A stretch of DNA of 56,852 bases from Verrucomicrobiota bacterium (GCA_043755815.1 JAYUSF010000086.1:1-56852); one strand, 5' to 3'; counted from the first letter of the stretch, positions 38,899-56,852 are shown. Numbers and translations: made by a program. The notes: generated by a model not told the origin, from the sequence alone.

Positions 38899-39978
38899 CT
38901 AGGCCGCTTCCAGCACCCGCAGACAGTTTGCCGCCAGTTCACCGGCCGAGTCGGCAACGGTCAGCAGCGGTGAAGGCCGGATGCCTTCCGCGCCGGCGGC
39001 CGTAGCCACCGTGGGAATGCCCGCCGCGAGGTATTCGATGACCTTGATCTTGATGCCCGACCCCAGCCGCAGCGGCGCGACGGCCAAGGCCACGCTGGAG
39101 AAGAGCGGCAGGGGATCCTCAACAAAGCCGAGCACCTCTACCTTCGGCCCCGCCAAGGCTTGGACCGCCGGGCCGGGATTGGCCCCAGCAATGAGAAATC
39201 GTGCTGCCGGCCGGCTCCGGTGAATCAAGGGCAGGACTTCGCGGACAAACCACGTCACGGCATCCTCGTTTTCGGAGCGGGACATCAGACCCCAGAAAAG
39301 CATCGTGTCGGGCCGGACTGTGGCCGGACTGCGGACCACCTCCCGGTAGCGGATATCCGCGACCGGATACCGGACTTCCACGTCGGTGCGGCCGCAGCAG
39401 TCGCGGATCAAGTCTCGGTCTTTTTCGTTCAGCGTCAGCAACCGTTCCGGGCGGCGCAGCACCGTGGCTTCCCACCGGCGGGTCCGCCGCGATTCCCACG
39501 CCCAGAACCATCGGCGCCAGCCCCGGCTGCCAGCGGACCGACGTTGCAGCGCCTGATAGAAGAGATCGTGGGCCACCAGGGTCGCCGGGATGGTCGGAGG
39601 CAGCAGGTCCAGCAGCGAAGCCCCCTGGATGGTTTCGAACCAGACGGACGCAAAAGTGCGGCCGGCGAGCCACTTACGCGCGGTAGCGAAGCGGGCGGAG
39701 GTGGTCAGCGGCAGCCCGGGATAGCGCAGGGCGGCCCACGCCCGGTTGCCGCGGGAAAGGGCGAATATCTTGGCCTCGGCACACATCCGGAAATCATCCG
39801 GCACGAGATATTGCCGTTCGTGCTCGTTGCAGAAGGCCAGCAGGGTCACGGGACCGGCCGCGCATTGCTCGCGCAGGATTTCGTAAACCAGCCGCTGGCC
39901 GCCAGAGGGAACCCGCTTGGAAGGCAGGAACCCGGAAATGAACAGTGTTCCTTTCACGGATTGGCCCGCCGGTTCCAA
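38899..39978 (-). CDS. Glycosyltransferase family 4-like
   Basis: N.DA..WF..EV.P, GFVED, PLR.GSGIKIKVIEY.A.G.P..AT..GAEG. Confidence 0.88.
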   Translation of the reverse strand: MEPAGQSVKGTLFISGFLPSKRVPSGGQRLVYEILREQCAAGPVTLLAFCNEHERQYLVPDDFRMCAEAKIFALSRGNRAWAALRYPGLPLTTSARFATARKWLAGRTFASVWFETIQGASLLDLLPPTIPATLVAHDLFYQALQRRSAGSRGWRRWFWAWESRRTRRWEATVLRRPERLLTLNEKDRDLIRDCCGRTDVEVRYPVADIRYREVVRSPATVRPDTMLFWGLMSRSENEDAVTWFVREVLPLIHRSRPAARFLIAGANPGPAVQALAGPKVEVLGFVEDPLPLFSSVALAVAPLRLGSGIKIKVIEYLAAGIPTVATAAGAEGIRPSPLLTVADSAGELAANCLRVLEAA

Positions 39979-41057
39979 TGGTGTTGGCCCTGCCGGCCCT
40001 GCTCTTCGGCAGAGAGCCAGGGTTGGCCGAGTGGCTGCGCAGTTCGGTAGGCGTCATGGATCAGCGTCAACGTCCGTAAGGCGTCCTCCGGGGGGACCGG
40101 GACGGGTTCGCCGTGCAACACCGCCCGAACCATGTGGATGATCTGCATCTCGATGCCGGCATAGGCGGTCTTGGGATTGGTCCTCCGAGGTTCTTTCATT
40201 CGCGCACCAGTTGGCCAGGAAACCACGGCCTCAATTCGTCGCCACGGCTCGCCGGGTTTCCGGATCAAAAAGAAACCCACCGGACCGATGGGCATGAAAA
40301 GTTCCCCGGTGGTGCCCCGCACCCAGAACCCATTGTTCAGTTCCTGATCCCAGGAAAGCTGGAGAAACCCGGCCACGTCGTCGTGACGCAACCGCAGGCA
40401 GGAATTCGCCTCGACACCGCCCGACCACGCGTCGTCTTCGGCACCGGCCAGCTCCGCCGGGCCAAAAATCCAGCCGAGCAGGTCCAGCACATGGACGCCC
40501 TTGTCTTGGAGCACGCCGCCGCCGGCCACCTCCCGGCGGAAGGCGGCCTCACTGACCACGGGCCAACTGTAGATGGAGCCTTCCCGATATTCATAGTCGA
40601 GCACGCGCCCCAGTTTCCCGGACTGGATCCAGTCGCGGACGGCCGCCGAATTAGGATGGAACCGGCGGGCCATCTCGACACCCACCAATCGCCCGCTGGC
40701 CTGTGCAGCCCGCACAATCTCCGCACCGGCGGCCGGCGTATCCGCGAGCGGCTTTTCGCAAAGCACATGGCTCCCGGCGGCCATCGCGGCGCAGGCCTGC
40801 GCCGCGTGGAACCGAGGCGGTGAAATGACCAAGGTCAGGGCGGGACGCACGGCGGCCAACGCAACCCCAAGGTCATCAGAAACCGTCGCCCCGCGGAAGC
40901 GACCCGCCGCCCAGGCGCGCCGCTCCGGTGAGGCTTCCACCATGCCGGCCACTCTGATGGCTCCGTCCTTTTCCAACCGGCCAAGTGGCTTCAGGTAAAG
41001 ATTCTCAAAGGCGGCGCCGCAGCCGACCACCAGGACAGGTATGGGGCTATTGCTCAT
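39954..41057 (-). CDS. Gfo/Idh/MocA family oxidoreductase
   Basis: VVGCG, LCEKP, GGGVLQD.GVH.LD; GGAGG RBS. Confidence 0.88.
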   Translation of the reverse strand: MSNSPIPVLVVGCGAAFENLYLKPLGRLEKDGAIRVAGMVEASPERRAWAAGRFRGATVSDDLGVALAAVRPALTLVISPPRFHAAQACAAMAAGSHVLCEKPLADTPAAGAEIVRAAQASGRLVGVEMARRFHPNSAAVRDWIQSGKLGRVLDYEYREGSIYSWPVVSEAAFRREVAGGGVLQDKGVHVLDLLGWIFGPAELAGAEDDAWSGGVEANSCLRLRHDDVAGFLQLSWDQELNNGFWVRGTTGELFMPIGPVGFFLIRKPGEPWRRIEAVVSWPTGARMKEPRRTNPKTAYAGIEMQIIHMVRAVLHGEPVPVPPEDALRTLTLIHDAYRTAQPLGQPWLSAEEQGRQGQHHWNRRANP

Positions 41058-42183
41058 GGTTCCTCCTTCCATAGCCGGCGAACTGCAGCCAGCGGCCTGT
41101 TCGGGCCAACCCCTCTTCAAAGCTCATCAGCTGGGGGTCGCCGAAGATTTGAACAAACTTCTCCATGCCGAGTTTGCGCTCGGTGGATTGGAGGCTCCAC
41201 TGCTCCCGGGAAAACCGGGGCGGCGACATCGCCACCGAGACGTCCGTGGGCACGGGCGCCTGGAATGCGCCACCCGCCAGCCATGGTAGCAGTGACTTGA
41301 GACGCGACTTGGCCTCGCCACTCATCCGTTTCAGGGCCCACTTGGAGCTCTGGTAGAACCACGGCTGTTGCTTTAGCCATTCCACGGCCAACCCGCGATG
41401 CAAGGCCAAGGGACTACGGGGAATAGTCCGGATCCGTTCCGGCGGATATCCCAAGGCGGCGGCGATGCCGCCGACGTAACGCAGCCAGGTGATATCCCCG
41501 GGGTCGGCGACGTTGAAGACCCCACCGACTGCAGCCGGTGTAAGGGTGGCGGCCCGGATGCACTTTACCAGATTGTCCACATGAATCAGGTTGCAGACGC
41601 CCTTACCATCTTGTGCCAGCCACATGCCTCCTCGGTCGAGCTGGCGGGCGGGCAGGTGAGACCAAGGGGAACCGGGGCCCCAAATCAGGCCCGGACGCAA
41701 GATCACGACCTCTGGGCCGCCGGTCTGCCGAAGCAGGAACCGTTCACAGGCTGCCTTGGCGCGCGCATAATACATCCAGTGGCCGGAGACAGGTGGGGAG
41801 TCGTCGTGGGTGCCCAAATCCTGGACTCGGTCGAACACCACGGCTGAGCTCAGGTGGATCAACCGGTGGGCTTTGGCGGCCACGGAGGCCTTCCAGATCG
41901 TTTCCGTCTCTTCCAGCATCGTGTGCGTGTCCCCCAACGTCACATTGACCACGGTCTGGCAGCCAGCAAACGCCTGGGCCAGGGAGGAAGCTTCGGCGGT
42001 GTTGGCCTTTCTCCACGAAGTAATGCCAATCCGGCTCAGGCGGGCGAGGTTTCGGGGTGAGCGGATTACTGGAAGCCAGTGGTCTTCGCCAGCCAGCCGG
42101 GAACATTCTAGCAGCCTCGTTCCGAGAAATCCGCCGCCGCCAACAACGGCTATGGCGGCGATAGACAGGGGATCTTTGGTCAT
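41047..42183 (-). CDS. NAD-dependent epimerase/dehydratase
   Basis: GGGGFLG, HLSS, YxxxK (YARAK), LRPG.IWGP. Confidence 0.85.
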   Translation of the reverse strand: MTKDPLSIAAIAVVGGGGFLGTRLLECSRLAGEDHWLPVIRSPRNLARLSRIGITSWRKANTAEASSLAQAFAGCQTVVNVTLGDTHTMLEETETIWKASVAAKAHRLIHLSSAVVFDRVQDLGTHDDSPPVSGHWMYYARAKAACERFLLRQTGGPEVVILRPGLIWGPGSPWSHLPARQLDRGGMWLAQDGKGVCNLIHVDNLVKCIRAATLTPAAVGGVFNVADPGDITWLRYVGGIAAALGYPPERIRTIPRSPLALHRGLAVEWLKQQPWFYQSSKWALKRMSGEAKSRLKSLLPWLAGGAFQAPVPTDVSVAMSPPRFSREQWSLQSTERKLGMEKFVQIFGDPQLMSFEEGLARTGRWLQFAGYGRRNHEQ

Positions 42184-45259: not shown

Positions 45260-46075
45260 TCAGGCGCTGGCAACTGGATCCGAAAACCGCAACGCCTCCT
45301 CGAATGAGACTCGTTCCAACACCTCTAGGGCGCCCCCTCGGGTCGCGTTCTTAATCCAGCCACCCTCTTTCCGCAACTCCTGGTCGCATACGTGAAAACC
45401 TTCTTCAATCAGTTCCATCTGAGGCGGAACCCACGGCTTGCCTGAACGATAGTTGGCAATGAAGTGATTACCATCGCCTTGGGCCGTTTTGAGTCCGGCT
45501 AGTGAGTCTTCAACTTTTTGAAACTTAAACGAGTGGTCCACCCCATACAGGAAGAAATGGCGGATGCCGAGATGGTAGCCAATTTGGGTTGCGGCCACCA
45601 GCGTGGCGCCGCCGACACCCGCCCCGAACCTCACGTCACGGAAGAACCGGAACGGCCGGCTCCAGTCGGATCGCACCCAATAAAAGTTACCAGGAATCTG
45701 CGGTTTCCGTTCATCTACAAACCACACGTCGCAGCCGCCGCGGGTCAGTATTTCCAGTCCGAAATCATCAATCATCTGCCGGTCCGAGCTGACCAAGCAG
45801 TTCGGGCGGAAACGAGTCTTGTCATAGGCCAAGAAAAAGCGGTTGCAGCAGAACGCGATCCGGCCGCTCAAGGCATCCAGATCTTCCGTCCGGACGCTGG
45901 GACCGCTGCCGATGAGAAAGCCGATCCTCCCCACGTAAGAATTCTTCGCCTGGCGCAGCAAACGTTGGTCACGGGTCAGCGGCAGCCCCAAGGCGGACAG
46001 GGTTGCGCCGCCTTGGAAGCCGAGCGACCGGACTCGTCGCAGCGCAGATCGAAACAGTTTCAATGGAAATTCCAC
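45260..46075 (-). CDS. DUF115 / Maf-like (MptE-like) protein, putative ulosonate transferase
   Basis: FLIGSGPS, CN...L, A.Q..Y.LG....L.GVDH, NHF..NY, NATRGG.LEV. Confidence 0.75.
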   Translation of the reverse strand: MEFPLKLFRSALRRVRSLGFQGGATLSALGLPLTRDQRLLRQAKNSYVGRIGFLIGSGPSVRTEDLDALSGRIAFCCNRFFLAYDKTRFRPNCLVSSDRQMIDDFGLEILTRGGCDVWFVDERKPQIPGNFYWVRSDWSRPFRFFRDVRFGAGVGGATLVAATQIGYHLGIRHFFLYGVDHSFKFQKVEDSLAGLKTAQGDGNHFIANYRSGKPWVPPQMELIEEGFHVCDQELRKEGGWIKNATRGGALEVLERVSFEEALRFSDPVASA

Positions 46076-46130
46076 AAAGTGTCACAACCTAACCCCGTGG
46101 CCGTTGGTTTGGAGGCATGGCGGCCGGTCG

Positions 46131-47543
46131 TCATCGTTGCAACAGCGGGGACGGCGCCACGCCGCCTTTCTCCGCGCGTCCCCTTGCGGGGGAGCCGGAG
46201 GGTTCGATTTTGGAAAACATCCGCAGGGTCACGAAGCAAACAACGGCGATGACATAGAAGAACTGGTGCACGTTGAAGAATCCGTCGTGCATGTTTGAAA
46301 GACCCAGCATGCCAAGACCAAACAGAGCCCACTCGATGCGCTGTTTCTGTTCGTCATTCAGGTCCTTGCGGCTGAGCAGGCCGACACCCCGCCAAGTGAG
46401 CACCAAGATGACGCTGGAGAGGAGCAGGGCCGGTATGAGCCCGTAGATGAAAATGAGGTCCAGAAACCCCTGGTGGAAGGCGATTCGCCCGCCGACCTGA
46501 CCTGCCAAGGGGTCGGCGAACGAGGTCTGCGAATAGGCGTCCAAAAAGACGTGGCCCTTTCCATAAAACAGGTAATTGCCTTCCCGCAGGCTATCGATCC
46601 CGGCGTCCCAGATTTCGGTGCGGTCGGTGAGCGAAACCAGGCCCGTTACGTCCTGCTTGCCCGCCATTCGGAGCACAAAATCGGGCACCGCCTGTTCGAG
46701 GAGGTTCCGGAAGGTGCTGTTGGTAAAGATCAGCGGGGCCACGAACATGTAGCTGACAAACAGCCCGTTGAGAATCCCCCTGAACCGATACGTGGGAATC
46801 AATCGCCACAGCATAAAGCCCAGCATGGGAAAGGCGGCGGCCCGGAACTCAATGATGCGGAGCAGGTAGATGAGCACGAGGGCTATGCCACCGGCAAACA
46901 ACCGCTGCGCCCACCCCATTTGCCGGCCGGAAATCCAGAACGCCAGGACGGGCAGTGCCCAGCGCAACAGGCTGGAAAGCTGGGCCGACGAATAGAAGGG
47001 GGCAATCCAGCGGGACTCCCCCTCCTCGAAGCGTGATTGATAAATGCCGCGCCGTTCATCAAAGATTCCCGGGTCCAGGCCCAGTTGGTCGGCCAAAAAG
47101 TTGCCGACCCCGAACCAGACGAACGCGATGGACAGGGTTATCAGGAACGGCGCCGGTGATCCCAGTCCGTGTCGGCTTCCCAAAATACCCAGCAGCAGCA
47201 GAAGCTGGCCTTCCAGGATCGCTTCCTTTACCGCAAACCCCATCCCGACTTCACGGGAGTGCTCCGCAGCGATCACCAGCAGGTTGAAAAGGATCAGAGC
47301 AGTGCCGATCCAGGTCTTCTTGCTAAGCCAGTCCGCGGACAAGGTCGCGAACCCGCGCCGGCCTAGGTTTAGGGCGGCAAACCCGATGAAAAGCAGGGTC
47401 GCAAGAACGATTACCTTGCCGGACTTGAAAGCCGTGCAGGTGATGAAGGTGCCGAGGAGGAATCCGTTGAGGGCGAAGAGCCAGAACGGAACCTTGGCCT
47501 GGGTGTCTGAAAATGAACGCATGGGACTAATTGCTGGCTTCAC
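46131..47543 (-). CDS. Polysaccharide polymerase / O-antigen ligase-like membrane protein
   Basis: About 10-12 TM helices; LTDRTEIW, G.GH and FHQGFLD..F.YG Wzy_C-like motifs. Confidence 0.7.
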   Translation of the reverse strand: MKPAISPMRSFSDTQAKVPFWLFALNGFLLGTFITCTAFKSGKVIVLATLLFIGFAALNLGRRGFATLSADWLSKKTWIGTALILFNLLVIAAEHSREVGMGFAVKEAILEGQLLLLLGILGSRHGLGSPAPFLITLSIAFVWFGVGNFLADQLGLDPGIFDERRGIYQSRFEEGESRWIAPFYSSAQLSSLLRWALPVLAFWISGRQMGWAQRLFAGGIALVLIYLLRIIEFRAAAFPMLGFMLWRLIPTYRFRGILNGLFVSYMFVAPLIFTNSTFRNLLEQAVPDFVLRMAGKQDVTGLVSLTDRTEIWDAGIDSLREGNYLFYGKGHVFLDAYSQTSFADPLAGQVGGRIAFHQGFLDLIFIYGLIPALLLSSVILVLTWRGVGLLSRKDLNDEQKQRIEWALFGLGMLGLSNMHDGFFNVHQFFYVIAVVCFVTLRMFSKIEPSGSPARGRAEKGGVAPSPLLQR

Positions 47544-47559
47544 GAGCGAACATCAAGGG

Positions 47560-48669
47560 TTACCGTTTCAAGCGGAGGAAAGGTCTTTCAACCAGCCGAT
47601 ACGAAAGAAAGGCACAGATCAGGGCGCAGGCCAGCTTTATCGGGAGGGAGGAGATCCAGTGGTCCGTCAGGTGGGTCAGGAGAGGTTGTTGCCAGAGATA
47701 GAGGCTGTAAGAGAACGCCCCCAATCCTCGCAGCGGAGCCGAATCCAGCCACGAGGTGAACCGGATGGCCGGAAGCTGGCAGAGGCACAGCATGAAAAGG
47801 GTCAGGGCGATGCAGCGGACCGAGTTGGCGCCGGGCCACTGGAAGAGGTCCCCCAGCTTCCACCAGTAGAGCGCGGGCAGGAGCACGAAGGCCGTGATGA
47901 AACCGGCCACGCCCCCGCCGATCAGGAGCCGGCGGTGCCGGTCCACCTCGCCGGTTGCGCGGAAGGAGGCCGCCAAGGCCCCGCACAGCAGGCCGTCAAA
48001 ACAGCCGTGGGTCATCAGGCCGGTCCAGGATTGGATTGCTGTCGGAAGGGAGGCGGCGCTGATCGCCCGGATTGCCGGCGCCAAGGCCAGTCCAGTTAGA
48101 CAGACCAGGCGCAACCGTCGAATTGACAGTGGACGGATCAGCAGCGGCCACAGGAGGTAAAAATGCTGCTCAACACAGAGACTCCACGAATGGCTGGCAA
48201 ACCAGGTGTTGGCGGCGGGCTCGGGATTCCACGCATAACTGTAGTTCCAGATGAATAGCGCGGCCCAGGCGATGGCGGACCACGAACAGTCGATGAGCCC
48301 CCCGGCCGTCAGCAGCGCCAGGCAGAGCAGATACGCGTAGAAGGCGGGCCAGATCCGCAGCGCCCGGCGGCGGTAGAATCCCCTGAGATCGATCCCGCCG
48401 GTGCGGGACTGCTCGTTCAGCAGCAGGCTGGTGATGAGAAAGCCGCTGATGCAGAAGAAGAGATGCACCCCGGTGTTCGCATACAGGCCGGCCAGCGGAT
48501 AGATGTTGTGCCAAAGGGGGGCGCCTCCTCCGGTTTCCAGCAGCTTGATCGAGTGACCGACCAAGACGAGCCCGATCGCGACGGCCCGCAAACCATCCAG
48601 CATGGGAATGCGCGAAGATCCTGACCTGACCTGAGGCGGCGCGATTGCTGACACTAGATTCGAACCCAC
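47560..48669 (-). CDS. Acyltransferase family 3 (O-acetyltransferase)
   Basis: LDGLRAVAI.LVL.GH, FF.ISGFLIT, FY.RR.LRIWP, HSWSL.VEQHFY, SYSLYLWQ. Confidence 0.92.
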   Translation of the reverse strand: MGSNLVSAIAPPQVRSGSSRIPMLDGLRAVAIGLVLVGHSIKLLETGGGAPLWHNIYPLAGLYANTGVHLFFCISGFLITSLLLNEQSRTGGIDLRGFYRRRALRIWPAFYAYLLCLALLTAGGLIDCSWSAIAWAALFIWNYSYAWNPEPAANTWFASHSWSLCVEQHFYLLWPLLIRPLSIRRLRLVCLTGLALAPAIRAISAASLPTAIQSWTGLMTHGCFDGLLCGALAASFRATGEVDRHRRLLIGGGVAGFITAFVLLPALYWWKLGDLFQWPGANSVRCIALTLFMLCLCQLPAIRFTSWLDSAPLRGLGAFSYSLYLWQQPLLTHLTDHWISSLPIKLACALICAFLSYRLVERPFLRLKR

Positions 48670-48681
48670 GGGATGGTTGGT

Positions 48682-49800
48682 TCAGCCAGTGACCCGACAT
48701 TCGGCGACGATGTTCCGTGGGCGCATGCCCGGCACGGTGACGCCGACATTGCACATCGGCTTGGCCTCTCCAGCGAGTGCCGCGGTCGAATAGTCCATGA
48801 CCTGCGCGGGGGTGATCTGCGCAAAGCATTCGCGCCGGACGTGACGGCAATGCCAGTTGCAACCGAAACAGTCCATGCCGTGGTAGATGACAAAGTGGTT
48901 GGGGGCTTCCGGCCACGGGAAGAAATGATCGTGTGTGCCTCCCCCCAAGATGACCAACAACCGGCTGACCACGATGCCGGCGAAGTGTGCAAACCCGGTG
49001 TCATTGCTGATCAACAGTTCGAGTCGTGCCAGTTCCGGGACGCTCGCGGCGAAGGCCAGCCGGTCCACGTGGTTCACGATTCCGGGGTCCAGAGCCGCGA
49101 TCTCGGCCGCCCGCTGCCCGGCATCCCCTCCGCCGAACAGGACCAATGTTTTGCCCTGCTTGAGGAAGGCCGTGGCCAGGCTTTTCCAAGCGGAGTGAGG
49201 CCAGTTCTTGACGTCGCCGCTCAGGCACAGTCCCACGCGGCCGCTTTCCGGCCGGGCCACGACGCCGTCGGTGCATTTGAGCTGGGGCGGACTGGCTGAA
49301 GTGATTCCCAGACGCTCCCGGGCGAAACGGCGGAAGTGTTCGAGTTCACTATGGTCCGCATCCGTGCCCTCGAAGCGATCCCAGCCGGCCGACAGCTCTT
49401 CCGCCAGTTCTGGCGGGGCATTGGTGACCCAGCGCCAGCAGCAGTCTTTCCGTTGGGCGCGCACCTTGGTCATCAGCACCAGACTGTTTTGGCGAATGTA
49501 ACGGCGCAGGCAGATTGCCCGGTCATAGGTCTCGGCCTGCAGCCGGCAGAACACCTCCCGGTCCCCGGCATCCGTCCGCAGCCAGTGCAGGCCGAACCGG
49601 AGCAGGCGGGGATGAAATTGGATGATGTCGCGGGAAACGAAGAGGCAGTTGCGCACCCCGTGGAGATTCCGCGCAATTTCTTCGTTGGCGCCGCAGGTGA
49701 CCAAATCCAACGGGCCGAGCCGCTGTGCCAGGTCGGCAATCAGTCCGGACGACAGGATGAGGTCGCCAATCCCGTCGTTTTTAATCAGCAGGGAAGCCAT
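48682..49800 (-). CDS. Glycosyltransferase family 9 (heptosyltransferase-like)
   Basis: DGIGD.IL, KNWP, ISNDTGFAHFA, GG. Confidence 0.85.
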   Translation of the reverse strand: MASLLIKNDGIGDLILSSGLIADLAQRLGPLDLVTCGANEEIARNLHGVRNCLFVSRDIIQFHPRLLRFGLHWLRTDAGDREVFCRLQAETYDRAICLRRYIRQNSLVLMTKVRAQRKDCCWRWVTNAPPELAEELSAGWDRFEGTDADHSELEHFRRFARERLGITSASPPQLKCTDGVVARPESGRVGLCLSGDVKNWPHSAWKSLATAFLKQGKTLVLFGGGDAGQRAAEIAALDPGIVNHVDRLAFAASVPELARLELLISNDTGFAHFAGIVVSRLLVILGGGTHDHFFPWPEAPNHFVIYHGMDCFGCNWHCRHVRRECFAQITPAQVMDYSTAALAGEAKPMCNVGVTVPGMRPRNIVAECRVTG

Positions 49801-50654
49801 CACCGTCGCCAGTGCAGAATGACGAGTCCGGAAGCTCCGGGCACCACGTCTCCGAAGGATGAAAACTCGGCGCCCTCGGGGACTCGCTCCCACCCGTTGA
49901 GCCCTACCCGGAGAACAATGCACTCCAATCCCTGCAACAAAGGCCGGGTGCGCAATGCGGCCAAGTGTTCCTGATGGAGAACCTGCCAGGCTCGGACACC
50001 GGTCACGGGCGGCAGCCGGACGAACTCCTTCCGTCCGTAGGGACAGGTCACGACCAATTCACCGCCTTCCGCCACCAGCGTGGCCAGCCTTTCGACACTC
50101 TGGCAGATGCATTCGATGGCTTGCGGCCAGTCCCACCCGAGGTCTTTCAGCGTGGTGCCATAGCGGGTGTTGTCGAAGCCTATGTGCTCCAAGGTGGACA
50201 GGCAGGTGACGAGCGGAAATGGGCGGCCCTGAAATTCCTCCAACGGTGACTTGTAATAGGTGGCGCGCACGCGGGCGATGGGTTCGCTGGCGGGATTGAG
50301 GAAGGAAACTGCACAGGCTGCCGGAATGAAGCGGTCAAACGCGGCGTTGTTCAGCACGCAACCCACGTCGAGCAACGAAGCCGGATTTCGCTGCCGGATG
50401 AGGTCGCAGACATAGGAGTATTCCGGCAGACGCTCCCCGTGTTCCAGCGTCCTTGGATCCCGGATTACCTCGCTCCAAGGTTTGCCGGCCAACAGTTGCT
50501 GGCACAGGTCGGTTATCACTGGGTCGCGAGTTTTCTGAGGGTCAAAGTAATGGCGACGAGTGCCCCATTCCTGGACTCGCCGGCCACTGCCCTGAAGAAA
50601 CCAACCGATGAACTGAAGGAGTTTTCGCATGATGTGTGACAAGGATTCGTTCAA
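49800..50654 (-). CDS. SAM-dependent methyltransferase-like (DUF268-like) protein
   Basis: ER.PEY, LLDVGC, CLSTLEHIG.DN..YG; the start may be 50630. Confidence 0.65.
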   Translation of the reverse strand: MNESLSHIMRKLLQFIGWFLQGSGRRVQEWGTRRHYFDPQKTRDPVITDLCQQLLAGKPWSEVIRDPRTLEHGERLPEYSYVCDLIRQRNPASLLDVGCVLNNAAFDRFIPAACAVSFLNPASEPIARVRATYYKSPLEEFQGRPFPLVTCLSTLEHIGFDNTRYGTTLKDLGWDWPQAIECICQSVERLATLVAEGGELVVTCPYGRKEFVRLPPVTGVRAWQVLHQEHLAALRTRPLLQGLECIVLRVGLNGWERVPEGAEFSSFGDVVPGASGLVILHWRR

Positions 50655-52135
50655 CGCCGGCTTTGCAGGACGAACCAGGCGTTGACCAGCACGAGGAGCC
50701 CGAACGGCGGCAGCGCCAGCGCCCGTTCAAACACGAATGGCCGGACGCCGAGAACGCGATACGCAACACGGGCCGCATACCAGACGGCAAACAGGAGCTG
50801 CGCCGCCAGCATGGCGGCGGGGAAGGCATACATGCCCCAGGCTCGGTGCGTCAGCAGCAGGGTTCCGACATTGACCGTAAAATAGCCCAGCATTCCCCAA
50901 TGTTCGGCCGGCTGATTGGTCAGGTTGCGGACTTGGTGAAGCATGGCGCTGTAGCGTTCGAAAAAAGTGTTCGCGGCGAAGATGGCCCACAGGAGCGGGT
51001 CAAAGGCCACCGACCGGCTACGCACCATCGCCAAAGCCCACGGAGCCACCAGGGGAAAGCTCACCAACCCGAGAACCAAAACCCAATGTGACAGCCGCAT
51101 GCCGCGGCGGAGGAGGCGGGTCTGCTCGTCCAGTTTCCCGCCCGCCCGCAGCCGGGCCAGTTCGGGGATCTTGCTGAGGAAGGGCGCCTGGGCCACCTGG
51201 CTCAACATGCCGATCAGGCGCAGGGTGAACAGATACGTGGCGGTCTGCGCGGGATTGTCCACCTGGGCCTGCAGCAGGCCCGTGACCTGCACTAAACCGG
51301 CGGTCATGACGCTCGTGATGCCATTCTTCCAGGCACTGTCCCAGACAAGACGGAAGACGGTCGGCTCCCACGGAGCCGGTTCAAGTCTGGCAAACCGACC
51401 CGCTTCCACCCGCCGGCACAGCCACGCGTTTAGCACGATGCCGGCCACCACCCAGAACTGGTTGGCGATGACCAGCGCAAGGACATTGCCTCCCAACAGG
51501 AGCACCAGAAAACTGCTTAGAATTCCCGCCAGACCGGTTACTGCCTCCGCCCGGCGCAACAGGGTGACGTGGTTCATGCCCAGCAGAAACACGCCGTAGA
51601 GGCTGCCTCCCAGCGACAGGCTGGAAACCAGCACGACGACTCCCCAGGCCGCCCAGCCGGGGACACTGTTACCGGCCGCAGCAAGCGGCTTCAGCATCGC
51701 CCCAGTGCCCACCGTCGCCATCAGGGCCGCGCTGGCCAGTCCCAGCCAGACAAAGACCCGGTGCATGGTGGCCAGCAGCCGGGCCACCGAACGCCAGTTG
51801 ACGCCTGCGGTGGTGGAGATGGAGTTGCCGTGCTGCAGGTCGGCCATGTCCTCGACTTCACCGCCCGCTCGGGCATACGCGAGGAGGCGGGCGAAGCTGG
51901 GCGCGAAACCGAAGTTGAGCAGGCCCTGCACCGCCAGCGCCGAGCTGAAGACAAACCACAGGGCGGCCTGCGGGGCGTCGAATTGACGCAGCACGAGCGG
52001 AATGACCAACACCAGCGACAGCGACCGGGTGAGAAAGCTCAGCCAGGTGTTCGCCGTGGGCGAGTGCCAGAGCCAGCGGAACAGTTGTCTCGGCCAGGCA
52101 CCGGCCGATGGTAAAATGTTGTTTGAGGTCACCAC
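50651..52135 (-). CDS. Wzx-type polysaccharide flippase
   Basis: About 12 TM helices; N-terminal P.VLR.F......W....A....L.FGF.P.F.R MOP-family pattern; located in a polysaccharide operon. Confidence 0.75.
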   Translation of the reverse strand: MVTSNNILPSAGAWPRQLFRWLWHSPTANTWLSFLTRSLSLVLVIPLVLRQFDAPQAALWFVFSSALAVQGLLNFGFAPSFARLLAYARAGGEVEDMADLQHGNSISTTAGVNWRSVARLLATMHRVFVWLGLASAALMATVGTGAMLKPLAAAGNSVPGWAAWGVVVLVSSLSLGGSLYGVFLLGMNHVTLLRRAEAVTGLAGILSSFLVLLLGGNVLALVIANQFWVVAGIVLNAWLCRRVEAGRFARLEPAPWEPTVFRLVWDSAWKNGITSVMTAGLVQVTGLLQAQVDNPAQTATYLFTLRLIGMLSQVAQAPFLSKIPELARLRAGGKLDEQTRLLRRGMRLSHWVLVLGLVSFPLVAPWALAMVRSRSVAFDPLLWAIFAANTFFERYSAMLHQVRNLTNQPAEHWGMLGYFTVNVGTLLLTHRAWGMYAFPAAMLAAQLLFAVWYAARVAYRVLGVRPFVFERALALPPFGLLVLVNAWFVLQSRR

Positions 52136-52234
52136 AGAGGTGCTGGCGTCCTCGCCGCGTTGGGAGTCATGCGCAGCCGGGAAGCGGACGGATGTTGCCG
52201 GAGGCTGAGATCATTGGCTGAACGGCGGGCCACG

Positions 52235-53284
52235 TCACTGGAGCCGGTCATGCAAATCTTCCCGGTGATGGCGCTCTTCCCGATAGACGGTGTCGATCAA
52301 CCGCATGACCTTGAGCGCATCCGCCGAGTTGCCGCTCGCCACCGGGCGGTCGTCCTGCACGCAGTCCAAGAAATACTTGGTTTCATCGGCCCACGAGCTG
52401 TCGAGGTGGAAGGTGGTCTTCTCCTCGTCCTCCCAGGTGGCGGCCGGCGCCACCGAACGGTTCTTGGCGATCGTCAGCACCTCGTCCCCGTAACTGCCCG
52501 AGGAGGTTTTGAGGCCGTTGAGCACCAGGTAACCCCGCTCCAAAAAGACCTCGATCGAAAACATGTGCCGCCACTGGGTCATGGTGCTGTGCAGTGAGGC
52601 CACCACGCCGGTCTGCCGGTTGCGCAGGTTCACGAACACGTTGTCCTCAATGCCTTCCAGCCTCCAAAACAGGCTCGAAACCATGCCCTGAACCTCGTCG
52701 AAATCGCCGGCCAGCAGCAGGAAGAGGTCGAGCATGTGAATGCCCTGGTCGATCAATATTCCTCCCCCGGCCAGCTCCTTCTTCGCGCGCCAGGTGCTGA
52801 AATAATTGTGATCCACGCTCTTCCCGTAACGGCCGCGCAACCACAGCAGGCGGCCGTAGGTTCCGGAATCCACCAGCCGTTTGATGGTTCGGATGGACTC
52901 GTGGTGCCGGTGGTTGAAGCCATACATCAGCTTGCGGCCTGTCGCCTGCTCAACCGCCCGGATCTCCTCGACCTCGGCCGCGGTGAAGGCCGGCGGTTTT
53001 TCGCAGAACACATGCTTGCCGGCCAGCATGGCGGCGATGGCGAGCGGCTTGTTCTGGTGGTTGGGCGTGCAGATGAAGACCGCGTCCACGTCGGGATGGC
53101 GATAGACCGCCTCGGGAGTTCGGGCCGCCGCGAGGCCCTGGAATTCGGTGACGTGGGGATCGTGGGCCAGCACCACGTGGCCCTTGCCGGTGGCGTTGAT
53201 GGCGGCAAGACGGGTCTGGCCCATCTTGCCGAAACCGATCAGCCCGATGCGGATCGGGGGGGGGGAGGCGTCGGATTCGAACAT
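52235..53284 (-). CDS. Gfo/Idh/MocA family oxidoreductase
   Basis: IGLIGFGKMG, CTPN, FCEKPP, GFNHR, GGGILIDQGIH. Confidence 0.9.
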   Translation of the reverse strand: MFESDASPPPIRIGLIGFGKMGQTRLAAINATGKGHVVLAHDPHVTEFQGLAAARTPEAVYRHPDVDAVFICTPNHQNKPLAIAAMLAGKHVFCEKPPAFTAAEVEEIRAVEQATGRKLMYGFNHRHHESIRTIKRLVDSGTYGRLLWLRGRYGKSVDHNYFSTWRAKKELAGGGILIDQGIHMLDLFLLLAGDFDEVQGMVSSLFWRLEGIEDNVFVNLRNRQTGVVASLHSTMTQWRHMFSIEVFLERGYLVLNGLKTSSGSYGDEVLTIAKNRSVAPAATWEDEEKTTFHLDSSWADETKYFLDCVQDDRPVASGNSADALKVMRLIDTVYREERHHREDLHDRLQ

Positions 53285-53294
53285 CGGAGGAAAA

Positions 53295-53768
53295 TTATTG
53301 AACGAGCGCGGCGGGGATCTTGACCACGACCTTGCGGACGGTCGTGAGCGAGCGGACCTGCAGTTGGGGCATATGGGGTTCGCCGGGGAACAGGACCGTG
53401 AACCGGCCGGCGAGGTTTTCCACCAAGGCCACGCCGCGCGGCGGGGTCGCAAAGTGCTCCACTTCCTTTTCCGCCGAGTAATCGTTGAGCGGGGCCAATT
53501 CCTCAGAGGTGGCCAATTCGATTCCTTCCCCGCCTTCCACAGTGAACTGCACGTCGATAGTCTGCCGGTGAGCCTCATAGCGGGCGGTGTCGCGGGTCTT
53601 GAGTGGATAACTCATGACCCGGGCGTAGAAGCCTTCCTCTCCCAGAGGATGAAATCCCTCGGTGGCGGTGGCGGCGTGGGTTTCGAGCCAGGCAAAGGCG
53701 GTCGCCCAGACGCGGTGTTGGGCCAGTCCGGGGTAGAACCGCCAGCGGTTCAGGGAATCGTGGATCAT
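53295..53768 (-). CDS. YhcH/YjgK/YiaL (NanQ-like) family protein
   Basis: YEAHRQTIDVQ...GGE.I, Y..EK.V, F.VLFP.EPH.P, RKVVVKI. Confidence 0.88.
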   Translation of the reverse strand: MIHDSLNRWRFYPGLAQHRVWATAFAWLETHAATATEGFHPLGEEGFYARVMSYPLKTRDTARYEAHRQTIDVQFTVEGGEGIELATSEELAPLNDYSAEKEVEHFATPPRGVALVENLAGRFTVLFPGEPHMPQLQVRSLTTVRKVVVKIPAALVQ

Positions 53769-53770
53769 GT

Positions 53771-54505
53771 TTAGTTCGCTTGAGGGCCGGCGGGGCTCCA
53801 ATAGGTGGGTGTGCCCGTTTCCTGCCCGGCTGCCCGACGGGCCAGCAGCAATGCCTCCGCGAGCCGGAAATCCTTCTCTTCGCTGATCTTCACCGCCTTC
53901 AACGGTTCCATCGGCCAGAGCAGGCGGTTTTCACCGCAGTAGCCGCCTCTGAACCGTTGATAGAGCTCCCGGAACTTGGCCGTGTTCCACACCGTGATTG
54001 CCCAATTGCAGATCTGGACACGGGGATTTTGCTGCGACGGTGCCAGCGGACCGCGTGGGTCGAGGTTGATGGCCTGGCCGCTGGAAAAGGTCTGCATCTG
54101 GGTTTCGCTGCACGAAATCAGGGTGTCCGCGGCGGATTCGGCGTAGGCCGCGAGGGCGGCGGCTACGTCGTCCGGCGTGAGCAGTGGGCAAACCGGGCTG
54201 ATCATGACCAAGGTGTCCATAGGCTTGGCCTCGATCAGGTCGATCGTGAAGTCGTCGCCAGTGGCGGTATCGGAGCCGAGGTGTTCTGGACGCCGGTAAA
54301 CCCGGCAGCCGAGCGATTCCGCGTAGGCTGCAATCCGGTCCGAATCCGTGTTGACGTAAACCTCATCCAGGCCGGCGGACGCGAGGGCAGTCTCGATGGC
54401 GTAACCGATCATCGGTTTGCCCGCGAGGTAACGCAGGTTCTTGGCGGGGACGCGCTTGCTACCGCCCCGGGCGGGGATGTGGGCAATGACTTTTCCGAGT
54501 TTCAT
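53771..54505 (-). CDS. Acylneuraminate/ulosonate cytidylyltransferase family protein (NeuA-like)
   Basis: IPARGGSKRVPAKN.R.L.GKP.I, V.TD, R...L.SD. Confidence 0.88.
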   Translation of the reverse strand: MKLGKVIAHIPARGGSKRVPAKNLRYLAGKPMIGYAIETALASAGLDEVYVNTDSDRIAAYAESLGCRVYRRPEHLGSDTATGDDFTIDLIEAKPMDTLVMISPVCPLLTPDDVAAALAAYAESAADTLISCSETQMQTFSSGQAINLDPRGPLAPSQQNPRVQICNWAITVWNTAKFRELYQRFRGGYCGENRLLWPMEPLKAVKISEEKDFRLAEALLLARRAAGQETGTPTYWSPAGPQAN

Positions 54506-55590
54506 AGGGTGTGAGGAGCCGTCCCCTGCCGGTAGTGGTCGAAGCAGCCGGCAATGACCGCGCGGATGCGGTCATCCAGCGCGATCTTGGTGAGGAACAT
54601 GTCGCCGAGGCCACGGGTGAGGATGACCCGGACCTCGTGGCCGACGTTTTTCTTGTCCTTGCGCAGCAGATCCAGATAGCGGTCGAGCTCAATCGTCCCG
54701 GGAACCGTCGGGTGCCAGTTGCGGGCGAGCAGGCCGCGCATCTCCGCCGCTTCCGCGGGGGTGATCAGGCCCAGCGCCGCCGAGACTTGGTTGGCAATGT
54801 CCATGCCGAAGCAGATGGCGATGCCGTGGGGGATGGCGTAGTCCGTGTAGCTTTCGAGTGCGTGGCCGAACGAATGGCCGTAGTTGAAGACGTTCCGCGG
54901 ACCTTCGTCGAACTCATCCCGTTCGATCATGGCCTGCTTGATCTCCAGACTGCGCCGGATCAGGGACCGCAGCACCCCGCGGTCGGTGAAGGCGGCGTCA
55001 TATTCCCGGCTCACCCGTTTGAAATCCGCCCGGCTGGTGAGCAGGAAGTAGTGGAACATCTCCCCCAGCCCGGAACGGAACTCGTCGCGTGGCAGGGTGT
55101 CCAGCCACGAAAGGTCGTTCAGGATCAGCACCGGCGGATGGAACCCGCCGAGCTGGTTCTTGAAGGGGCCGAAATTGATCGAGGTCTTGCTGCCGATGCA
55201 ACTGTCGCACTGGGACAGGAGGTTGGTGGGCACGAAGATCCAGCCCACACCCCGGTAGAGGATCGAGGCGATGAAGGCGGTCACGTCCTGTGTGATGCCG
55301 CCGCCGATCGCGACCAGTCGGTGATTCTTGCGGAACCCGCCGCGGATCAGCCGCTCGATGATGGGCTCGACCGCCTGGTAGCTCTTCTGCGGTTCCGTCG
55401 GGGCCAGCAGCAGGTGTGGATGGTCGCGCCGGAAGGCGTCGACCCGCGGCGCGTGCAGCTGGGCCAAGTTCTCGTCGATGATGAGGAAATCGCCTTCCTT
55501 CAGTTCGGCCTTCAGGGGCGCGGTGAAATCGTCCACGAAGCGGACCTCGTAGGGGCCGCGGAACGAGCGGACGGTCAGGGTTTCAGACAA
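54502..55590 (-). CDS. 3-dehydroquinate-synthase-like (AroB-related) sugar-phosphate phospholyase/cyclase
   Basis: GGGITQD, PTNLLSQCDSCIGSKTSIN, KNQLG.F, SGLGE, NYGHSFGHALE, HG.A, DKK. Confidence 0.88.
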   Translation of the reverse strand: MSETLTVRSFRGPYEVRFVDDFTAPLKAELKEGDFLIIDENLAQLHAPRVDAFRRDHPHLLLAPTEPQKSYQAVEPIIERLIRGGFRKNHRLVAIGGGITQDVTAFIASILYRGVGWIFVPTNLLSQCDSCIGSKTSINFGPFKNQLGGFHPPVLILNDLSWLDTLPRDEFRSGLGEMFHYFLLTSRADFKRVSREYDAAFTDRGVLRSLIRRSLEIKQAMIERDEFDEGPRNVFNYGHSFGHALESYTDYAIPHGIAICFGMDIANQVSAALGLITPAEAAEMRGLLARNWHPTVPGTIELDRYLDLLRKDKKNVGHEVRVILTRGLGDMFLTKIALDDRIRAVIAGCFDHYRQGTAPHTL

Positions 55591-56299
55591 GGGTGAAGCC
55601 TCCGTCCACGACGAGGTTTTGGCCCGTCAGGTAGGTGTTGCGACGGCTGCCCAAGAACAGGGCCACCTCGGCGATTTCTGCCGGTTGAGCCATCCGTTGC
55701 AATGGAATCTGCGCGGTCAGGGCCGTCATTTCTTCCGGCTTCAGACTCCGGGCTGTCAGTTCCGTGAGCGTGAAACCGGGCGAAAGGGCATTCACCAGGA
55801 TTCCCGCCGGGGCCAGTTCCACGGCCAGCGCCCGGGTCAGTCCGACCAGCCCGGTCTTGGCCGCGCTGTAGGCGCTGCGTTTGGCCTTGGTCGCCACGCT
55901 CCAGATGGACGCCAGGTTGATGATCCGTCCACCGCCCTGCCGTCGCATCACCGGGGCAACCGCCCGGCTCAGGTGGAACGGGCCATGATACGAAACCCGG
56001 GCCACCCGGTCGAATTCCTCCGGGGTCAGCTCCTCCAGGGATTTGATGATGTTGATGCCCGCGTTGTTGATGAGGACATCCACCCGAGGCCGGCCGGCGA
56101 GGTATTGGCAGAACCGTTCGGTGGAACCGGAGTCGGTCAGGTCCAGTTGCTGGTATTCGCCGATCAGGTCGGCGGGCGGCACCGGACCGGTTCCGGTCAC
56201 CAGCACCTGGGCGCCGGCCGCGTGAAAGGCCTGGGCAAAGGCCCGGCCGATCCCGCGGGTGCCCCCGGTGATGACGACCGTCTGATTGGAGAATTCCAT
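55583..56299 (-). CDS. SDR family oxidoreductase
   Basis: TGGTRGIG, NNAG, S, YSAAK, PG, TGQ.LVVDGG. Confidence 0.92.
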   Translation of the reverse strand: MEFSNQTVVITGGTRGIGRAFAQAFHAAGAQVLVTGTGPVPPADLIGEYQQLDLTDSGSTERFCQYLAGRPRVDVLINNAGINIIKSLEELTPEEFDRVARVSYHGPFHLSRAVAPVMRRQGGGRIINLASIWSVATKAKRSAYSAAKTGLVGLTRALAVELAPAGILVNALSPGFTLTELTARSLKPEEMTALTAQIPLQRMAQPAEIAEVALFLGSRRNTYLTGQNLVVDGGFTLV

Positions 56300-56339: not shown

Positions 56340-56772
56340 TCAGAATACTTCCGCCCGCAGCAGGGCGAGCCGGGGCGAGGACGCTGACGCTGGCACGGCG
56401 GCGGGATTGACCGCGGCGTTGAGCCGGATCACGACCTCATGTTCCTCGCTCGGGCGATCCGCGAAGGGCAGCGTGGAATTGCTGCCCCCGGACCAGATTT
56501 GGAGTGGAACGTATTCCCAGGAGGTTGCCGCGTGCCACAGGTCCCGACCCATATCGTAGGGTTGACCATCCAGCAGCACGTCCACAATGCCTGCGGAATC
56601 GCTGCCCAGCAGTTGGAGGAACGCTCCCCGCCCGTGGAACGTGAGCTTCACCTCATCCCCGGCGGTCGCGGTATGCCGCAGGATGGGGAACAGGCCATTG
56701 GCCCAGCCGCTCCCGGTGTAGGTCAGTTCCGTGGGCGCAAGTTCACGGCCCCGTAACGGGGATTGCTCAATA
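56340..56772 (-). pseudogene. 3' fragment of an interrupted gene (galactose-binding-like beta-sandwich domain)
   Basis: Frame is open from 56771 to 56340 (YTGSGW...TAGDEVKLTFHGRG...GIVDVLLDG...EHEVVI), has no start codon before the domain and abuts the IS end. Confidence 0.55.
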
Positions 56773-56852
56773 GGTATTGATTACGTTTTTTTGAGCAGGT
56801 AGAGGAGGATGCTGGCGGCGAGGTTGGCCAGCTTTTTGGTGTAGCAATGGGT
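56773..56852 (-). mobile_element. Probable IS1-family right end with transposase C-terminus
   Basis: Terminus GGTATTG fits the IS1 GGnnnTG consensus; peptide THCYTKKLANLAASILLYLLKKT* (stop 56781-56783) resembles the IS1 transposase T.C(Y/F)SK tail; local AT-rich shift. Confidence 0.6.

Follow-up and report, generated by a model that had tools for sequence, protein, structure and literature searches.

The window analysed here is the whole of a 56,852-nucleotide contig (JAYUSF010000086.1, designated C86) from a Verrucomicrobiota genome that is 83% complete. Open reading frame (ORF) calls and a profile search place a polysaccharide gene cluster on its minus strand, from 36 kb to the window's end, and close to that end lies a group of genes organised around a homologue of AroB, the 3-dehydroquinate synthase (DHQS) of the shikimate pathway. 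Judged from sequence comparison, this group represents a real and conserved variant of the theme that unites sugar-phosphate cyclases with cytidine monophosphate (CMP)-ulosonate pathways.

Five of the genes are tightly packed, with junctions of -8, -4, +2 and +10 nt. They encode a classical short-chain dehydrogenase/reductase (SDR) of 238 amino acids (PF13561; 55583..56299), the AroB-like enzyme of 362 amino acids (PF01761 and PF24621, in the His197 subclade of TIGR04425; 54502..55590), a 244-residue cytidylyltransferase of the CTP_transf_3 (NeuA/KdsB) family that belongs to a clade with a K-x-S motif (PF02348; 53771..54505), a YhcH/YjgK/YiaL protein of 157 residues counted from the ATG (PF04074; 53295..53768) and a 349-residue Gfo/Idh/MocA oxidoreductase (Gfo; PF01408/PF22725; 52235..53284). 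The Gfo gene is separated by 99 nt from the gene for a Wzx-like flippase (50651..52135; NF041503 at 137 bits, below the cut-off of 300), and further downstream is the gene for a DUF115/MptE-like (Maf-like) protein of 271 residues (45260..46075), a candidate CMP-sugar transferase recognised through its module homologues and ESM Atlas. The original prediction had named the five genes and the Maf-like gene, and all six were found on the minus strand at these positions. ORFs were annotated from 36.2 kb to the window's end; among them there was no match to the shikimate pathway and no ulosonate synthase, as had been claimed. The nearest named relatives of the AroB-like gene come from Verrucomicrobiota metagenome-assembled genomes.

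The upstream end of the operon is cut by an insertion sequence (IS). One end of this multi-copy element occupies 56756..56852 (no strand assigned), where the contig breaks, and the same end is found at many contig ends. Beside it, at 56340..56755 on the minus strand, is the 3' remnant of a GDSL/SGNH-domain gene whose start is on contig C342, the continuity of the frame having been read by eye. Contig C342 terminates in the opposite end of the same IS, a short repeat present at both IS junctions fits a target-site duplication, and the genes that precede the SDR gene in relatives have their homologues in this genome on C342. The IS therefore splits one operon between the window and C342, a join that we infer and that the assembly does not contain. 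The genes on C342 are a gmd-like gene, a GmhA-type isomerase gene, an HldE kinase domain, hldD and a gene for a PGDH-like D-2-hydroxyacid dehydrogenase (2HADH). A NeuB, KdsA or aldolase gene had been expected upstream, and C342 carries the 2HADH and heptose genes instead; nor was an unlinked synthase detected, since this genome (83% complete) and five of five related carriers of the module yielded neither HpcH nor a true NeuB. A NeuB or HpcH synthase serving the window's type of module, upstream or unlinked, was rejected on these grounds. The gene list of the original prediction was right for the window and missed two further core members, the 2HADH and a GmhA-like isomerase. The gene into which the IS inserted (window 56340-56852; L038:1-2040) has a signal-peptide-like sequence in addition to its GDSL domain; it breaks the 2HADH-SDR adjacency of the closest relatives and is missing from their loci.

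Between the flippase and Maf-like genes, also on the minus strand, are a 284-amino-acid ORF (49800..50654) with no Pfam or NCBIfam match, a gene for a GT9 (heptosyltransferase family) glycosyltransferase whose start codon is uncertain (48682..49923), a gene for a membrane acyltransferase of the Acyl_transf_3 family (47560..48669), the latter two assigned by profile match, and a gene for a 470-residue hydrophobic protein (46131..47543) that has no family match and is polymerase-like from position alone. A second Gfo oxidoreductase gene and an NAD-dependent epimerase-like gene occupy 39954-42183 in the same cluster.

The AroB-like enzyme

The AroB-like protein is not the housekeeping enzyme. It passes the TIGR04425 model marginally (400.5 bits against a cut-off of 400) and fails the AroB model TIGR01357 (256.6 bits against 305); the canonical aroB of the same genome sits on contig C109, and a separate aroB above cut-off was present in five of five carriers tested of the His197 type and in five of five of the sister type that has Lys at that position. 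The protein was placed among the sugar-phosphate cyclases in a quick tree of 43 proteins, built without EVS, aminoDHQS or characterised EboD sequences, in which TIGR04425-type proteins grouped together as a clade (SH-aLRT 99) separate both from AroB/DOIS and from the cyclases of sedoheptulose 7-phosphate (S7P), with the His197 group nested inside it (support 87). Identity with the housekeeping aroB was rejected on the basis of the separate gene, the TIGR01357 score and the separate clade, in agreement with the earlier claim. A third AroB paralogue, on contig C224 (L005:7292-8491), groups with the S7P cyclases and has no ebo neighbours in the ORF list; it is possibly EboD-like.

A structure model of the AroB-like protein (pLDDT 91.9) has the DHQS fold according to Foldseek, with TM-scores of about 0.85 to the AroB proteins of Vibrio cholerae and Francisella at about 30-33% identity. 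Its metal ligands and nucleotide loop are conserved, as the original prediction had it, and E177, H239 and H255, the Glu/His/His metal site, are invariant. In Aspergillus DHQS numbering, which is also that of His197, R130, D146, K152, K161, N162, E194, K250, R264, N268, H271, H275, H287 and K356 are as in DHQS, and 13 of 16 compared sites are identical. The motif SGLGEMFHY stands where the genome's own aroB has AEIVKY, which upholds the contrast drawn earlier with the E..KY of canonical AroB. In the alignment of homologues Lys197 is replaced by His in 120 of 120, Leu267 by Phe in 118 and Glu260 by Asp in 119. Position 197 is Lys in AroB and in references annotated as EEVS, DDGS and DOIS, and Arg in one Streptomyces paralogue; position 250 is Lys, as in DHQS, where the S7P cyclases have Met. 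The protein thus shares with DHQS its fold and most substrate-site residues and differs from it in these three substitutions, in its polysaccharide context and in its fixed SDR partner. A redundant dehydroquinate synthase, or a gene carried along beside a cytidylyltransferase that serves a known sugar, would suit the fold and the 13 identical sites, but with a separate aroB here and in all 10 of the related carriers tested, a clade of its own, an unvarying His197, a fixed SDR partner and a patchy spread (2 of 60 relatives), we consider this highly improbable.

TIGR04425, an AroB-related putative sugar phosphate phospholyase (cyclizing), is a hypothetical equivalog family whose clade the window protein shares. 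It splits into a Lys197 branch found beside thiamine diphosphate (ThDP) enzymes and a His197 branch, that of the window gene, found beside CMP-transfer genes. In the available parts of PMC12904256 and PMC5133447, other members of the superfamily (EEVS/ValA, DDGS, EVS, DOIS and EboD) are likewise specialised paralogues beside a housekeeping aroB. EEVS and DDGS differ in having Met250 and Pro275 (or Thr) where the AroB-like protein has Lys and His, and two DOIS-annotated reference proteins have Gly/Ala264 and Glu268 where it has Arg and Asn. S7P cyclases and DOIS yield small-molecule cyclitols rather than CMP-activated sugars of glycans. As for EboD, the AroB-like protein has no ebo neighbours and branches apart from the S7P cyclases in the tree, which lacks a characterised EboD.

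Distribution, partner genes and natural variants

Conservation of the module, which the original prediction had anticipated, extends over several phyla (Bacteroidota, Verrucomicrobiota and others) and to viral contigs. Of 60 relatives, 2 had the His197 type, as did 11 of 401 Bacteroidota genomes (about 3 in 100); entries from Pelagicoccus, Chlorobium, Desulfarculus and Smithella are among the named homologues, and the module is also present in Foetidibacter luteolus YG09 (L012), a named isolate. A DNA search of E. coli genomes had no match, the matches in plasmids and named phages were distant and AroB-type only, and no carrier with a known polysaccharide structure was found.

Neighbourhoods were counted from same-strand ORFs in a set of 103 loci (13 of 17 from one homologue search, 80 and 10 from two others), 45 of which were well flanked, with no less than 5 kb upstream and 4 kb downstream. 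The SDR and the cytidylyltransferase were present at all 45 of these, and Gfo, the 2HADH and a GmhA-like SIS protein at 42 each; YhcH was present at 33, HpcH and a PF04199 hydrolase at 27 each, and a 6-phosphogluconolactonase at 6, one or other of these last two enzymes being found at 32. Maf-like proteins occurred at 30 loci, Maf- or GT38-like proteins at 33, and NeuB-family proteins at three, of which the one scanned was a PseI adjoining its own transferase. HpcH tracks one cytidylyltransferase clade (39 of 43), as against 1 of 39 for those scored nearer the window's, and was for that reason rejected as a core step.

Gene order is variable apart from the SDR/AroB-like pair: the SDR gene is directly upstream of the AroB-like gene at 87 of 90 loci, and the partner SDRs are one clade whose split parallels the two AroB-like subclades (support 81). 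By a motif rule, the SDR is predicted to be an NADPH-type reductase. The cytidylyltransferase (PF02348, 82.8 bits) has the CTP-binding loop, and its nearest solved structures are NeuA enzymes. The earlier label "NeuA-like" is in that respect apt, but K-I-S replaces the D-I-D of NeuA/PseF-type neighbours, D-I-D or V-D-T being the C-terminal acidic motif of NeuA/KdsB enzymes, and the equivalog cut-offs are missed (PseF 96 of 205.7 bits; KdsB at most 63 of 255). Sister cytidylyltransferases within the same module type retain D-I-D. The K-x-S clade counts 24 rows plus L130 and has a conserved Cys in S/N-P-V-C-P. YhcH scores 77.4 bits with TIGR00022 (cut-off 45.5) and 75.8 with the NanQ model NF040884 (cut-off 160), and each of the 11 Bacteroidota genomes with the AroB-like gene also has an orthologue of Gfo. 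Most SIS proteins of the module are GmhA-like yet below the GmhA cut-off, with Asp and Glu replacing GmhA's Glu and Gln. PDB searches with Gfo, SIS and the 2HADH gave family-level matches only.

Some observations on these partners stand apart. A divergent SIS gene is located elsewhere, on contig C131 (L140:455-1075); this GmhA-like form is conserved in related genomes (L142-L145) outside polysaccharide loci, once beside a ROK kinase. The AroB-like enzyme is fused to an inositol monophosphatase domain in P0219 and P0229. At loci without YhcH (L066, L070, L085, L093 and L094), DUF4862 and extra SDRs lie beside the module.

Loci that have the module's other genes without the AroB-like enzyme were found in several forms. 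That of G401 carries orthologues of Gfo (59% to that of the window), SIS, the cytidylyltransferase, the PF04199 hydrolase, 2HADH, YhcH and the Maf-like gene together with an inositol-monophosphatase-family gene, and it lacks the AroB-like and SDR genes; the sole AroB match of this genome is weak and far from the locus. No second exchange of this kind was found among 216 genomes of G401's family, 7 of which have the Gfo. Another four loci, Gfo-positive and AroB-negative, are more distant; two of them have a HAD phosphatase, HpcH and transaldolase. Of six AroB-less loci with a more distant cytidylyltransferase, four combine it with 2HADH, SDR and Maf-like genes, and no ulosonate synthase was found in the fetched stretch of those four. 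An AroB-less module of cytidylyltransferase, 2HADH, SDR and Maf-like genes stands at L179, L181, L182 and L183, two of them with the PF04199 hydrolase and all with no ulosonate synthase in view. A stretch of L200 (4308-14178) holds two tandem CMP-sugar modules, one with GAPDH-like, cytidylyltransferase, HpcH, 2HADH and HAD genes and the other with Gfo, SIS, cytidylyltransferase, PF04199, inositol monophosphatase, 2HADH and YhcH genes.

On viral contigs in IMG/VR (L205-L256), 52 loci have a TIGR04425-type gene and an SDR gene inside large glycosylation clusters, and 30 of the 52 are of the His197 type. These 30 have SDR (30), SIS (29), cytidylyltransferase (27), GT29-like (25), class-III aminotransferase (22), Maf-like (18), Gfo (1) and 2HADH (1) genes; seven have neither aminotransferase nor Gfo. 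The cytidylyltransferase of the viral His197 form is often cupin-fused and its aminotransferase is lysine-6-transaminase-like; one related viral contig has a T4-type clamp loader. The Lys197 sister branch (L019, L020, L031-L035 and L243-L254) combines a ThDP enzyme and the same SDR clade with an aldolase, NeuB-like or kinase gene, the kinase being of the FGGY type, and it often adjoins CDP-3,6-dideoxyhexose genes; this context was seen at 6 bacterial loci and 10 of 22 viral loci. Such gene sets are candidates for the synthesis of sugars that are carbocyclic or carry long acyl branches. Clusters for acyl-branched sugars (YerE, ErwE and MMAR_2332, in the available part of PMC9306805) are the context that this branch shares; the window module differs in having no ThDP enzyme and no CDP-dideoxyhexose genes.

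A predicted route to a CMP-activated sugar

The Maf-like protein of the window scores 14.5 bits with PF01973, under the cut-off of 34.6, and has no PDB match. Its module homologues reach 40-64 bits and ESM Atlas scores the window protein at 0.96, so the DUF115/Maf label given earlier rests on the homologues and the Atlas and not on the protein's own profile score. Three unrelated families of sialyltransferase type accompany the module: DUF115/Maf-like proteins (30 of 45 loci), PF07388, whose polysialyltransferase-like members lift that total to 33, and the GT29-like PF00777 (25 of 30 viral His197 copies). Together with the cytidylyltransferase found at 45 of 45 loci, they make a CMP-ulosonate-type donor the likely product, and they lend support to the earlier suggestion of a CMP-activated, probably undescribed sugar. 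With the pathways of NeuB/NeuA, PseI/PseF and KdsA/KdsB, which feed Maf, GT38 and GT29 enzymes, the module shares CTP_transf_3, a YhcH/NanQ-type protein and the sialyltransferase-type transferases; it differs in having no phosphoenolpyruvate-condensing synthase and, in the window, no D-I-D in the cytidylyltransferase. The terminal deoxy group of pseudaminic and legionaminic acids is made by a nucleotide-sugar dehydratase, whereas here it is predicted to come from a DHQS-fold enzyme.

Our preferred reading, to which we give a probability of about 0.45, is that the AroB-like/SDR pair strips a terminal phosphate without cyclising the sugar, and that the product is a terminal-deoxy ulosonate with a 2-keto-acid head made by oxidation, probably from S7P. 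Of the DHQS cycle the AroB-like enzyme would complete the first half, with oxidation by NAD, elimination of phosphate and re-reduction, and would release a methyl ketone with no ring closure; the adjacent SDR would reduce this ketone, and the pair would turn CH2-O-phosphate into CH3. Formation of the head without NeuB or KdsA is a weaker inference than the AroB-like step. The GmhA-like isomerase would convert ketose to aldose, Gfo would oxidise C1, the lactone would be hydrolysed and the 2HADH would oxidise C2, and the simplest start would be S7P from the pentose phosphate pathway, leading to 7-deoxy-hept-2-ulosonic acid, whatever the order of the steps. If the AroB-like enzyme acted on heptonate 7-phosphate before C2 oxidation, no carbonyl would be available for ring closure. 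YhcH may supply the correct ring form, after which the cytidylyltransferase would make the CMP glycoside of the terminal-deoxy ulosonic acid and the Maf-like protein would add the CMP sugar to the polysaccharide. In the same manner, Epd and PdxB build a 2-keto acid oxidatively from erythrose 4-phosphate. The fuller claim, that the His197 TIGR04425 proteins are non-cyclising DHQS-fold enzymes which, with the SDR, make the terminal-deoxy sugar in a synthase-free oxidative route to CMP-7-deoxy-heptulosonic acid, we put forward tentatively.

A pair that converts CH2-O-phosphate to CH3 fits the fixed SDR partner, the exchange for a phosphatase seen in G401 and the sister branch's ThDP context. ThDP enzymes of the acyl-branched sugar type take hydroxylated 2-oxo acids as donors, in the available part of PMC9306805, and because a ring-closed product has no 2-oxo acid that context fits a product that is not cyclised. 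The lack of HpcH and NeuB in this genome and in the five related carriers, the synthase-free state of four of the six AroB-less loci and the lactonase-type genes at 32 of 45 loci fit oxidative building of the head. Lys152, Lys250 and Arg264, which match DHQS, are counted on the same side.

It is possible, if on balance unlikely, that the AroB-like protein is a true cyclase, forming a dehydroquinate- or valiolone-like ring that the SDR and Gfo or an aminotransferase would turn into a cyclitol or aminocyclitol, to be cytidylylated and built into the glycan by a chemistry unlike that of sialic acids. The K-x-S of the window cytidylyltransferase presumably resembles the phosphate-binding Lys motif of IspD, although TIGR00453 matches at just 19.6 bits and sister enzymes of the same module retain D-I-D. 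The class-III aminotransferase at 22 of 30 viral copies would suit such a product, but no kinase recurs among the neighbour families, and in G401 a phosphatase can replace the AroB-like/SDR pair. A carbocyclic O-antigen sugar, bradyrhizose, does exist, according to the available parts of PMC4743980 and PMC9912281. Transfer from CMP glycosides by enzymes of sialyltransferase type, as described in part of PMC8470674, passes through an oxocarbenium-like state, which needs a ring oxygen. A carbocycle has none and cannot form that state, although three families of such transferases are found with the module. CMP-quinic acid is cited in the same source, in a reference title, as a basis for inhibitors. 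The choice between deoxy and carbocyclic products, which had been left open, does no more than tilt towards the terminal-deoxy sugar that is not cyclised.

Much of what favours a ring also weighs against the preferred reading, and other points join it. The DHQS enolpyranose intermediate cyclises unaided in solution, and a like tendency to close would follow for a C7 ulosonate substrate. The residues of the late DHQS steps (152, 162, 250, 264, 268, 275 and 356) are intact, NCBIfam names the family "(cyclizing)", and the K-x-S motif could point to a phosphate acceptor. All characterised members of the superfamily cyclise, in the available parts of PMC12904256 and PMC5133447; the latter also describes EVS as resembling DHQS yet using S7P, so a DHQS-like sequence is no proof of a carboxylate substrate. 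No DHQS homologue is named for the caryophyllose clusters in the available part of the paper on them (PMC9306805). The SIS gene nearby in this genome, on C342, is of the GmhA type and is accompanied by ADP-heptose genes. The phosphatase exchange rests on the single genome G401, phosphatase and AroB-like enzyme occur together at 2 of 103 loci and in two fusion proteins, and the locus counts are not independent because several loci are near-duplicates. Finally, Gfo and the hydroxyacid dehydrogenase are both missing within 8 kb of 29 of the 30 viral His197 copies, and none of five viral records searched whole (31-71% complete) has a 2HADH above cut-off, so entry by oxidation is not a universal feature.

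[quoted passage not shown] The carboxylate-site residues are kept, and the genome holds three PF00793 DAHP-synthase/KdsA genes. This route leaves no clear role for the GmhA-like isomerase (42 of 45 bacterial and 29 of 30 viral loci) or for the lactonase-type genes, and the AroB-less relatives, though also synthase-free, retain the dehydrogenase; we regard it as distinctly doubtful. The probability that remains after these four readings is assigned to routes not listed here.

A literature search, with most subscription journals outside its coverage, found no description of the module and no assay of the TIGR04425 family, and the predicted sialic-acid-like surface sugar is absent from those given in the available part of the PMC9912281 review. 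If the AroB-like enzyme is non-cyclising, it would be the first such DHQS-fold enzyme found in the literature searched and would represent a new route to deoxy sugars; if its product is carbocyclic, CMP activation of such a ring would contradict the mechanism accepted for sialyltransferase-type transfer. The presence of the module in Foetidibacter luteolus YG09 means that the sugar could be isolated. The module offers a testable function for TIGR04425 and suggests that ulosonates may be made without NeuB or KdsA.

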